Source: Escherichia phage 121/2022-2B. Taken from it: a stretch of DNA of 64,000 bases. The DNA is taken from sequence record OR958571.1. One strand, written 5' to 3'. Positions 38,197 through 38,789 of the stretch are shown piece after piece (position 1 is the stretch's first letter; every line of letters starts with the position of its first letter). The notes under the pieces are model-generated. The model saw only the letters and a list, made by a program, of their open reading frames with translations. It was not told the origin of the DNA and searched no databases. The position numbers and the translations under genes were made by a program.

Positions 38197-38232
38197 ATAC
38201 CAAAAAGTCCCAACCTTTCGGTTGGGGCTAAG
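38197..38232 (-). repeat. 36-bp direct repeat, downstream copy, containing a GAAA-loop hairpin plus U-run
   Basis: ataccaaaaagtcccaacctttcggttggggctaag; 2 mismatches to the copy at 38754-38789. Confidence 0.85.
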
Positions 38233-38236
38233 AATG

Positions 38237-38710
38237 TTATTTGATTTGTTTAGCAGACCAAATGCGGTCTTTAATAATTTTTTGGATGTCTTCAACATAC
38301 TCAAGAGAGTGAGCATGTGGGTTATCTTTGAAACTATAAGCACGAGCTAACTTTTGACCTTCAGTTTTGATTACTAAAAGCTCTTTAAGGATAGCTTCAT
38401 ATTTGGAGATAATTCCTTTAACAATATTTTTTTCTTGTGTAGCTTTAGGATCTGCTTTAGGAGCAGGTTTACCTGAAGCCTTTGCAAAAGCAGCGCCAGT
38501 AGCAACTAAACTTTTCCAGGCCATACTAACAGCATTCCCCGTAAATCCTTCTGCTTTCATGTCGCGAGCAAATTGGAATCGCGATTCGTCAGAAGCATCT
38601 TTATAAGAATATTTACCCGCTGCAATGGCTGCTTTTGCGACAGCTTGAATTTCGGTGCTAGATGCTTCATTTAACACCGCTTCATTTAAAAATTGAGTAT
38701 ATGATTTCAT
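38237..38710 (-). CDS. internal-protein-like late protein with variant capsid-targeting leader
   Basis: ATG at 38710 with AGGAAA RBS gives MKSYTQFLNEAV..., 157 aa; the track ORF 38237..38887 extends upstream into the promoter and repeat. Confidence 0.55.
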   Translation of the reverse strand: MKSYTQFLNEAVLNEASSTEIQAVAKAAIAAGKYSYKDASDESRFQFARDMKAEGFTGNAVSMAWKSLVATGAAFAKASGKPAPKADPKATQEKNIVKGIISKYEAILKELLVIKTEGQKLARAYSFKDNPHAHSLEYVEDIQKIIKDRIWSAKQIK

Positions 38711-38748
38711 CTTATTTCCTGTTTTAATTTGTAGATTTAATATACTAA

Positions 38749-38756
38749 TATTTATA
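38749..38756 (-). promoter_or_regulatory. late promoter for the internal-protein-like gene
   Basis: Minus strand TATAAATA, about 38 nt upstream of the ATG. Confidence 0.6.
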
Positions 38757-38789
38757 CCAAAAAGCCCCAACCTTTCGGTCGGGGCTAAG
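38754..38789 (-). repeat. 36-bp direct repeat, upstream copy
   Basis: ataccaaaaagccccaacctttcggtcggggctaag. Confidence 0.85.

Follow-up and report, generated by a model that had tools for sequence, protein, structure and literature searches.

The 64,000-nucleotide stretch of Escherichia phage 121/2022-2B analysed here (sequence record OR958571.1; in the following, the window) carries, between the stable-RNA gene rnaC and the conserved gene e.8, a single minus-strand gene for a 157-residue protein (38237-38710) that is enclosed by two copies of a terminator repeat. We favour, with a probability of about 0.7, the reading that this gene is a swappable late cassette at the rnaC/e.8 site and that its predicted product is packaged in the capsid and injected as an internal protein (IP). 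The parts of this reading differ in strength. We hold it very probable that the gene is a terminator-bounded unit which may be gained and lost via its terminator repeats; the product is probably packaged in the capsid, as judged from its N-terminal sequence, and a role against host defences, proposed by analogy with known IPs, has a chance close to even or somewhat below. The rnaC/e.8 interval itself is a variable cassette site of Tequatrovirus, the group of T4-like phages to which the window belongs, with best DNA matches of 96-98.6% over 37700-39100.

The earlier note, which had been made from the letters of the window alone, described a 157-residue gene with its own late promoter between two direct repeats, and the reading frame and the octamer were both recovered in our analysis. 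The gene starts with the ATG at 38710 and ends with the stop codon at 38237-38239 on the minus strand. Its 474-nt coding sequence is annotated in identical form in eight other genomes, and it was called by independent annotators in RB68, e11/2, ECML-134 and G50. Changes between orthologues are mostly synonymous and the ratio of nonsynonymous to synonymous rates (dN/dS) is 0.03-0.10, including a pair at a dS of about 1.4. By these values the gene is under strong purifying selection, and because of them we take the open reading frame (ORF) to be a real gene. A 216-residue ORF initiated by TTG at 38887 in the program-made ORF list is an artefact that crosses the upstream terminator into rnaC, and the plus-strand ORFs within 38237-38710 are not conserved as annotated genes.

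The T4-type late promoter octamer TATAAATA is found at 38749..38756 on the minus strand, 38 nt upstream of the ATG and with a 3-nt overlap with the upstream repeat, and a Shine-Dalgarno sequence AGGAAA can be read at 38715..38720 on the same strand, 4 nt before the ATG. As stand-alone evidence the octamer was dropped, since it is not enriched in the window; it carries weight because its position is conserved in orthologous cassettes, 10 of the 13 other cassettes of the 157-residue type (type A) that we examined having the exact TATAAATA at the same offset. No exact octamer stands at that offset in L008, L009 and KMB38, and the printed flanks of L009 and KMB38 read AATAAATA (a 7/8 match) at the promoter position. 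We infer that TATAAATA acts as a late promoter. Each cassette of the site is, as far as its elements can be predicted, a self-contained late-type unit consisting of terminator, TATAAATA, Shine-Dalgarno sequence, gene and terminator.

The repeats are located at 38197-38232 and 38754-38789, exactly where the earlier note had placed them, and are identical at 34 of 36 positions (94%). They make up one two-copy family of 36 nt, and a degenerate search of the 64-kb window gave no third copy, with 0 in 100 shuffles. The minus-strand sequence of each repeat is CTTAGCCCC(G/A)ACC-GAAA-GGTTGGG(G/A)C-TTTTT-GGTAT, which has a G+C-rich hairpin and directly after it a U-run. The upstream copy (38754..38789, minus strand) has the features of an intrinsic terminator, with the stem-loop at 38763-38786 and the U-run at 38758-38762; its stem has 10 pairs including one G.U, closed by a GAAA loop and followed by UUUUU, and folds with -21.6 kcal/mol (z = -3.6). 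The downstream copy (38197..38232, minus strand) begins 4 nt past the stop codon as the terminator of the cassette, and in this window two substitutions leave it with 7 contiguous pairs and about -13 to -14 kcal/mol, so the uniform 8-bp stem of the earlier description has to be replaced by 10 and 7 pairs, while its hairpins and U-runs stand. Both copies are detected by a terminator-consensus scan, and the repeat has been annotated as a terminator by other groups in e11/2 and G50. Thus the repeats around the gene, which had been treated as anonymous, are better read as functional terminators, with gene and terminators all on the minus strand. By comparison with relatives the upstream copy is the terminator closing the tRNA-rnaD-rnaC unit and the counterpart of the single T4/T6 copy, and the downstream copy is the terminator of the inserted 157-residue gene.

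Phage T4 has no gene between e.8 and rnaC. Its sequence reads ...gcttag-ATACCAAAAAGCCCCAACCTTTCGGTCGGGGCTAA-ccgttgcggcaacc..., which is one repeat copy with a stem-loop identical to that of the upstream copy at 38754-38789, and the flanks of this single copy are those of the window, namely on the e.8 side the flank past the downstream copy and on the rnaC side the flank preceding the upstream copy. One terminator copy within the same outer flanks and no gene is the state of T4, T6, Lv5cm, Sf24, KIT06, BF15 and W143; the distance from the rnaC flank to the e.8 ATG is 259-260 nt in T6, Lv5cm, Sf24, KIT06 and BF15, and W143 is of the same type save for a small extra deletion. Such single-copy empty sites were what the earlier note had proposed to look for in T4-like genomes. 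Its suggestion that recombinational gain or loss had left a repeat-bounded unit agrees with a site that holds 0, 1 or 2 cassettes and with junctions as expected for exchange between terminator copies.

Site occupancy was surveyed in the INPHARED phage set using the T4 e.8-to-rnaC segment padded with random sequence as the query, which joins insertions of up to about 1.8 kb. From 736 records 60 were listed at even steps down the ranking and 42 of these had both flanks, making the result a sample and not a census, in which most site states are inferred from the inter-flank spacing alone and 10 of the 42 were checked at the sequence level (sequence-level checks covered 25 loci in all). The site was empty in 9 of the 42 records (span 676-688 bp) and held this gene only in 20, of which 19 were longer by 554-560 bp and one by 524 bp (phiC600P9); another single insert, the 187-residue paralogue only, was seen in 3 records (+609 to +688 bp), and two cassettes in the remaining 10 (+1168 to +1247 bp). 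At least 80% of 37700-39100 was present in 387 of 745 records, and IMG/VR contributed 9 loci only for the site.

The two-cassette genomes ECML-134, G50, L007, L008 and L013 carry this gene and then a 187-residue gene (MKTYAEFLTEAAKLPSE...; type B), the two being separated by a terminator copy. Only the 187-residue gene is present in CHD94UKE2, WL-3 and CT01, in CT01 as a truncated version of 162 residues, and the junction in this paralogue-only state reads rnaC-flank / terminator / agtttgaatcac..., the last element being the upstream region of the paralogue. On sequence comparison this is exactly the junction expected if a two-cassette genome loses the 157-residue gene by exchange between its two terminator copies on either side of that gene. 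The Mosigvirus-like KMB38 and L009-L012 show the same layout with members of the same family (153-157 residues), a 205-residue type (MKTYNEFLNESVLNEAGVRM...; type C) and a leaderless membrane protein of 184 residues, and because the site also holds this last protein the array is not limited to leader-bearing genes. The predicted membrane protein (MKLLKYLSWILLVPLDF..., phrog_2143, 'unknown function'; L010:2136-2690, with equivalents in L011 and L012) has no capsid-targeting sequence (CTS) but has its own TATAAATA and terminator copy.

In more distant phages the similarity to T4 sets in only at query position 466-472, exactly with the first base of the repeat, and because their matches begin there we regard the terminator as the edge of the conserved tRNA/rnaC module. 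In several places of a neighbour-joining tree built on the e.8-side flank, genomes with an empty site stand beside occupied ones (Sf24 with RB68, BF15 with CHD94UKE2, and KIT06 and W143 with G50), which suggests repeated gain or loss of the cassette.

It could be argued that the repeats are merely two similar terminators, produced by re-use or convergence and without a role in turnover, or that turnover proceeds by SegB co-conversion of the tRNA region or by exchange of long flanks; taken together we consider these explanations rather improbable. The hairpin is selected as a terminator, since the Tequatrovirus stems GCCCC...GGGGC are replaced by GGCCC...GGGCC in both copies of L010-L012, a compensatory double change, and a GACC to AGCC change in the stem exchanges G.U/A-U for A-U/G.U. 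Selection on the hairpin alone does not account for a repeat identity that exceeds the stem-loop on both sides (CTTAG... and ...TTTTTGGTAT), for the tendency of the copies of one genome to match and share variants, or for the empty and paralogue-only junctions, which were inside the repeat in every genome checked. The adjacent tRNA cluster of many relatives contains segB, and SegB promotes preferential inheritance of the tRNA region (cited in PMC4122927), but there is no segB in this window. Flank exchange during co-infection would likewise transfer a site state as a whole from one phage to another; it accounts for the spread of these states and not for the origin of precise single-copy sites. 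We therefore retain gain and loss via the terminator repeats as the preferred model at the DNA level.

The second part of our reading concerns the leader of the protein. Codons 1-15 (38666..38710, minus strand) encode MKSYTQFLNE/AVLNE/A, a CTS-like leader or propeptide with two L-x-E motifs. For T4 IPIII the first 10 residues suffice for encapsidation, and mutagenesis of the T4 CTS has assigned targeting mainly to residues 4 and 7 and processing by gp21 to residues 8 and 10 (PMC9026906). The leader of the 157-residue protein has Tyr4, Phe7, Leu8 and Glu10 at these mapped positions, followed by Ala11, and wherever proteins of types A, B and C have a full-length MK leader, Tyr4 and Phe7 are retained. 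The gp21-type motif (L/I-x-E followed by a small residue) is present as L8-N9-E10/A11 and a second time as L13-N14-E15/A16. Cleavage by gp21 is predicted after Glu10 and Glu15 and would give mature N-termini at Ala11 (AVLNEASSTEIQAVAK) or Ala16 (ASSTEIQAVAK). When all ATG-initiated ORFs of at least 40 residues in the window (n=608) were scanned for MK[ST][YF]x[EQ]F or a relaxed form of it, the motif was found in four, namely this gene, ipI, an extra IP gene in the ipI locus and the IP gene of the ipII/III locus (33303-33776; phrog_3155, 'internal virion protein'). The capsid-targeting-like leader of the earlier note thus matches the T4 CTS at the four mapped positions and is, within the window, specific to internal-protein genes.

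The leader is also part of a larger block. Comparison of L011 (type A, about 2065-2180) with L010 (type C, about 2690-2810) revealed about 118 nt that are about 99% identical and comprise the terminator, the late promoter, the 5' untranslated region and the first 16 codons. The identity collapses at codon 17, and past codon 16 the two cassettes cannot be aligned at the DNA level. Promoter and propeptide therefore travel together as one block, whose edge lies at the predicted cleavage site, directly after the second L-x-E-A.

The same block is the starting point for an explanation in which the product is not packaged at all. The N-terminal block would then be a recombination-borne module of promoter, 5' untranslated region and initiation signals, and the gene would encode an accessory protein that is made late and stays in the cytoplasm, with a role for example in assembly, in superinfection exclusion or in late host takeover. 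As the stretch from the terminator to codon 16 moves as a DNA unit, the conservation of the leader could in part be due to hitch-hiking. In diverged members, however, the leaders MKSYTQFLNE, MKTYNEFLNE, MKSYAEFLTE and MKTYAEFLTE differ in DNA and are kept at the amino-acid level at exactly positions 4, 7, 8 and 10, the motif occurs in the window on IP genes only, and the 10-residue T4 CTS alone is sufficient for packaging foreign proteins (PMC9026906, PMC3012670). We find an unpackaged product unlikely on these grounds and continue with the reading that the protein enters the capsid.

The earlier note had also suggested a profile search with the 157-residue protein, and this led to a small family of T4-like phages with no functional annotation. 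The only match in PHROGs is phrog_2280 ('unknown function', 4e-60), which also includes the type B and type C proteins, and in pairwise BLASTP against the 157-residue protein type B aligns over the leader only and type C with 26% identity. The best Pfam match has E = 0.12, which is below the cutoff, NCBIfam gave no match, and none of the annotated internal-protein families (Pfam IPI_T4; phrog_8111, 3155, 4363 and 2667) was matched. A sequence-profile match in the PDB to 27 residues of a designed PPR repeat contains no significant stretch and was judged spurious. A word-indexed search returned 13 relatives, all of them 'hypothetical' and from T4-like phages only, and an exhaustive hidden Markov model search of 1.84 billion representatives gave 13 matches, also without informative annotation. 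All named cluster members are 'hypothetical' or 'uncharacterized' save one type B member labelled 'isopenicillin N synthase-like dioxygenase', which is evidently spurious. As judged from these sequence searches the family is restricted to T4-like phages.

AlphaFold2 (9-sequence alignment, mean confidence score pLDDT 73) predicts an all-helical protein whose N-domain spans about residues 19-78 and is joined by a disordered Pro/Ala/Lys linker (79-88, PAPKADPK) to a long C-terminal helical hairpin at 88-154. A Foldseek search of this model against BFVD and the PDB returned its own orthologue only, with nothing else below E = 0.6. The predicted mature form is basic and lysine-rich, with an isoelectric point of about 9.5 and about 15.5-16 kDa, and in this, as in its PAPK linker, it is like the IPs that associate with DNA (PMC3012670). 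These properties could also suit a packaged protein of another kind, a structural or DNA-condensing, charge-neutralising component of the head that is no specific effector against defences: the linker resembles DNA-binding low-complexity segments, no similarity to any inhibitor was detected in these searches, and lysines of IPs touch DNA phosphates inside the head (PMC3012670). Against a structural role, the gene is dispensable, about one fifth of the sampled relatives, including T4 and T6, being without any cassette. The combination of very divergent paralogues with a conserved architecture is typical of arms-race proteins, and all three characterised T4 IPs are specific inhibitors, each of the proteins Ip1, Ip2 and Ip3 having its own target among the GmrSD type IV restriction enzymes (Silas et al. 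2025, PMC12373910). We rate a purely structural role as unlikely.

Several points weigh against a packaged internal protein on a mobile cassette, and the first three of these speak at the same time for the cytoplasmic accessory protein discussed above. The gene is outside both IP loci that are named in the literature. It has the late octamer only, in contrast to the three classical IP genes of the window, which have early-type promoters upstream. For the carrier phages, a literature search turned up neither proteomic data on virions nor N-terminal sequences or mapped transcripts. Compared with the canonical MKTYQEFIAE the leader is changed at 5 of 10 residues, of which one change (Ile8 to Leu) is conservative, and TATAAATA was found 12 times in the AT-rich window, where 10.7 were expected. 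The searches of Pfam, NCBIfam, PDB, PHROGs and Foldseek gave no homologue, fold or domain that hints at a target. At the DNA level, 36 bp is short for efficient homologous recombination in T4, so slippage or other routes are possible. The downstream terminator copy is weakened in this particular window, and it is intact in most other genomes compared. Finally, the flank tree is soft evidence, as it was built from about 460 nt, has no support values and concerns phages that recombine freely.

The sequence of events that we propose is as follows. The cassette would be transcribed late from TATAAATA in a gp55-dependent manner, insulated from its surroundings by the flanking terminators. The leader would bind the scaffolding core of the prohead, gp21 would cut it after Glu10 and/or Glu15, and the mature protein would stay in the head with the DNA until it is injected at the next infection, where its most likely role would be to block a host defence that attacks the incoming DNA, comparable to the inhibition of GmrSD type IV restriction enzymes by T4 Ip1, Ip2 and Ip3. 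Late transcription, packaging, cleavage and injection are, like the target, inferred from sequence features and from the T4 precedent. Loss would occur by homologous recombination or copy-choice slippage between the 28-36-bp repeats, excising the gene precisely and leaving one terminator, which is the state of T4 and T6. Gain would be the reverse event or an exchange with a co-infecting relative via the conserved flanks, and in either case transcription of the neighbouring genes would be undisturbed.

All genes of the region are on the minus strand, in the order ipI, 77-residue IP, trna ORFs, tRNAs, rnaD, rnaC, cassette and e.8. On the downstream side of the site lies the conserved e.8 (37732..37995), with e.7, e.6 and onwards after it, and its early-type promoter TTTACA-17-TACTAT (38039..38067, minus strand) belongs to the conserved left flank that is common to empty-site genomes. 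The conserved right flank is formed by the stable RNAs rnaC (about 38837-38975) and rnaD (about 38982-39100), which stand at the 3' end of the tRNA cluster; both were located by aligning the window with T4 and RB68 as annotated. They are the species 1 and 2 RNAs of T4 and neither is in an Rfam family, an Rfam search over the region giving only tRNAs and sub-threshold chance matches, and nothing for the repeats. Upstream of rnaD the window has ten contiguous tRNAs at 39930-39103 (Arg, Asn, Tyr, Met, Thr, Ser, Pro, Gly, Leu and Gln) and no segB. In T4 segB interrupts a cluster of eight tRNAs, in RB68 segB is truncated, and the tRNA cluster itself is polymorphic. Between the tRNAs and the 77-residue IP are trna.4/.3/.2-like ORFs.

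The ipI gene is at 41550-41263 (Pfam IPI_T4, 7e-54). Between it and the trna.4-like ORF, a 77-residue ORF at 41177-40944 has the exact T4 CTS (MKTYQEFIAESSDVKVEF...) and belongs to phrog_8111, 'internal virion protein'; T4 has no gene at this position, which makes the ORF an extra cassette in the classical ipI locus. The IP gene at 33303-33776 (minus strand; 157 residues, MKTYQEFITEAAINSQ..., phrog_3155) is the sole one beside the lysozyme gene e (33871-34365), where T4 has ipII and ipIII. A 27-nt direct repeat with 81% identity connects the 5' leader and promoter regions of e.8 (38021-38047) and of the trna.4-like ORF (40896-40922); it resembles the early-promoter homologies described as PeSL elements (see below) and could also mediate exchanges. 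In the T6 RefSeq entry NC_054907 (L018, 1-245) the e.7 homologue is labelled 'capsid scaffolding protein' by similarity transfer, which looks like an annotation error.

If our reading is true, T-even phages have a third IP locus, and a family of three divergent types that now carries the label 'hypothetical' across hundreds of genomes of therapeutic and model phages would be added to an IP catalogue that is assumed to be confined to two loci and whose members have recently been shown to act as type IV restriction inhibitors (PMC12373910). More far-reaching is the idea that rnaC/e.8 is an unrecognised third T-even IP locus with an integron-like array, in which late-promoter stem-loop units of terminator, promoter and leader swap cargo domains, and that types A, B and C of phrog_2280 are new injected effectors against host defences, possibly against further GmrSD or type IV variants. 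This is a tentative proposal that we think possible but less likely than not. The promoter-plus-leader module, which breaks off sharply where the propeptide ends, offers a concrete picture of how phages create new capsid-delivered proteins, and it would be useful for engineering protein delivery by T4. Natural controls exist, since T4 and T6 are without the gene and close relatives have one or two cassettes. The outcome would hardly surprise a T4 specialist; its yield is a testable candidate set of injected effectors.

The phenomenon is already known in kind, from the IP polymorphism of T-even phages and from the PeSL cassettes (Arbiol 2010). The specific locus and family appear to be unannotated, literature searches with leader peptides and locus tags giving no earlier mention of the protein, and an earlier listing among '>30 IP variants' is possible. 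What looks new is the rnaC/e.8 location, the late TATAAATA fused to a terminator, and the unannotated protein family.

Polymorphic IP genes of T-even phages are said to have been described by Repoila et al. in 1994, and further work on the IPs is that of Mullaney & Black 1996, Bair et al. 2007 and Silas et al. 2025. The gene studied here resembles them in its small size, in being non-essential and carried by some close relatives and not by others, in its location in the denV-to-57B genome region and in being flanked by repeated regulatory sequence. Its product shares with T4 IPI, IPII and IPIII the short N-terminal leader MK(T/S)Y..F(I/L).E followed by Ala or Ser, and, as is usual among T-even IPs, the mature part is unrelated to other IPs. 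T-even IP genes have been assigned to two loci only, ipI and ipII/III, and described as absent elsewhere in these genomes (PMC2839356; PMC12373910). The present gene differs in occupying a third site, rnaC/e.8, at distances of about 2.2 kb to the ipI locus (40944-41550) and about 4.5 kb to the IP gene in the ipII/III locus (33303-33776), in belonging to phrog_2280 with no match to Pfam IPI_T4, in having only a late promoter visible, and in a leader with a tandem second L-N-E site; its packaging is at present a prediction.

The closest parallel for the DNA arrangement is the PeSL/PmSL elements, stem-loop-plus-promoter units that flank single accessory ORFs (ORFans) in hyperplastic regions and are left as a single element at the empty site of a sister genome (Arbiol et al. 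2010, PMC2839356; Comeau et al. 2014, PMC4122927). Recombination between flanking elements has been proposed to result in excision or insertion (PMC2839356, PMC4122927). Our repeats similarly are stable, intergenic stem-loop terminators that flank variable ORFs, with a single element where the ORF is missing (T4, T6, Lv5cm, Sf24, KIT06, BF15 and W143). They deviate from that model in that the promoter is the late TATAAATA and not an early sigma-70-like or a middle (Mot) promoter, in that the conserved block is mostly terminator (28-36 bp) and not a motif of about 100 bp, and in that the downstream copy is followed by unrelated sequence, with the e.8 early promoter about 130 nt further on. The cassette also resembles phage morons, in that one gene, equipped with its promoter and terminator, is inserted between two conserved genes. 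Morons are thought to enter by illegitimate recombination without conserved flanking repeats, whereas the cassette at rnaC/e.8 has homologous repeats as its boundaries and the site is re-used by paralogous cassettes.

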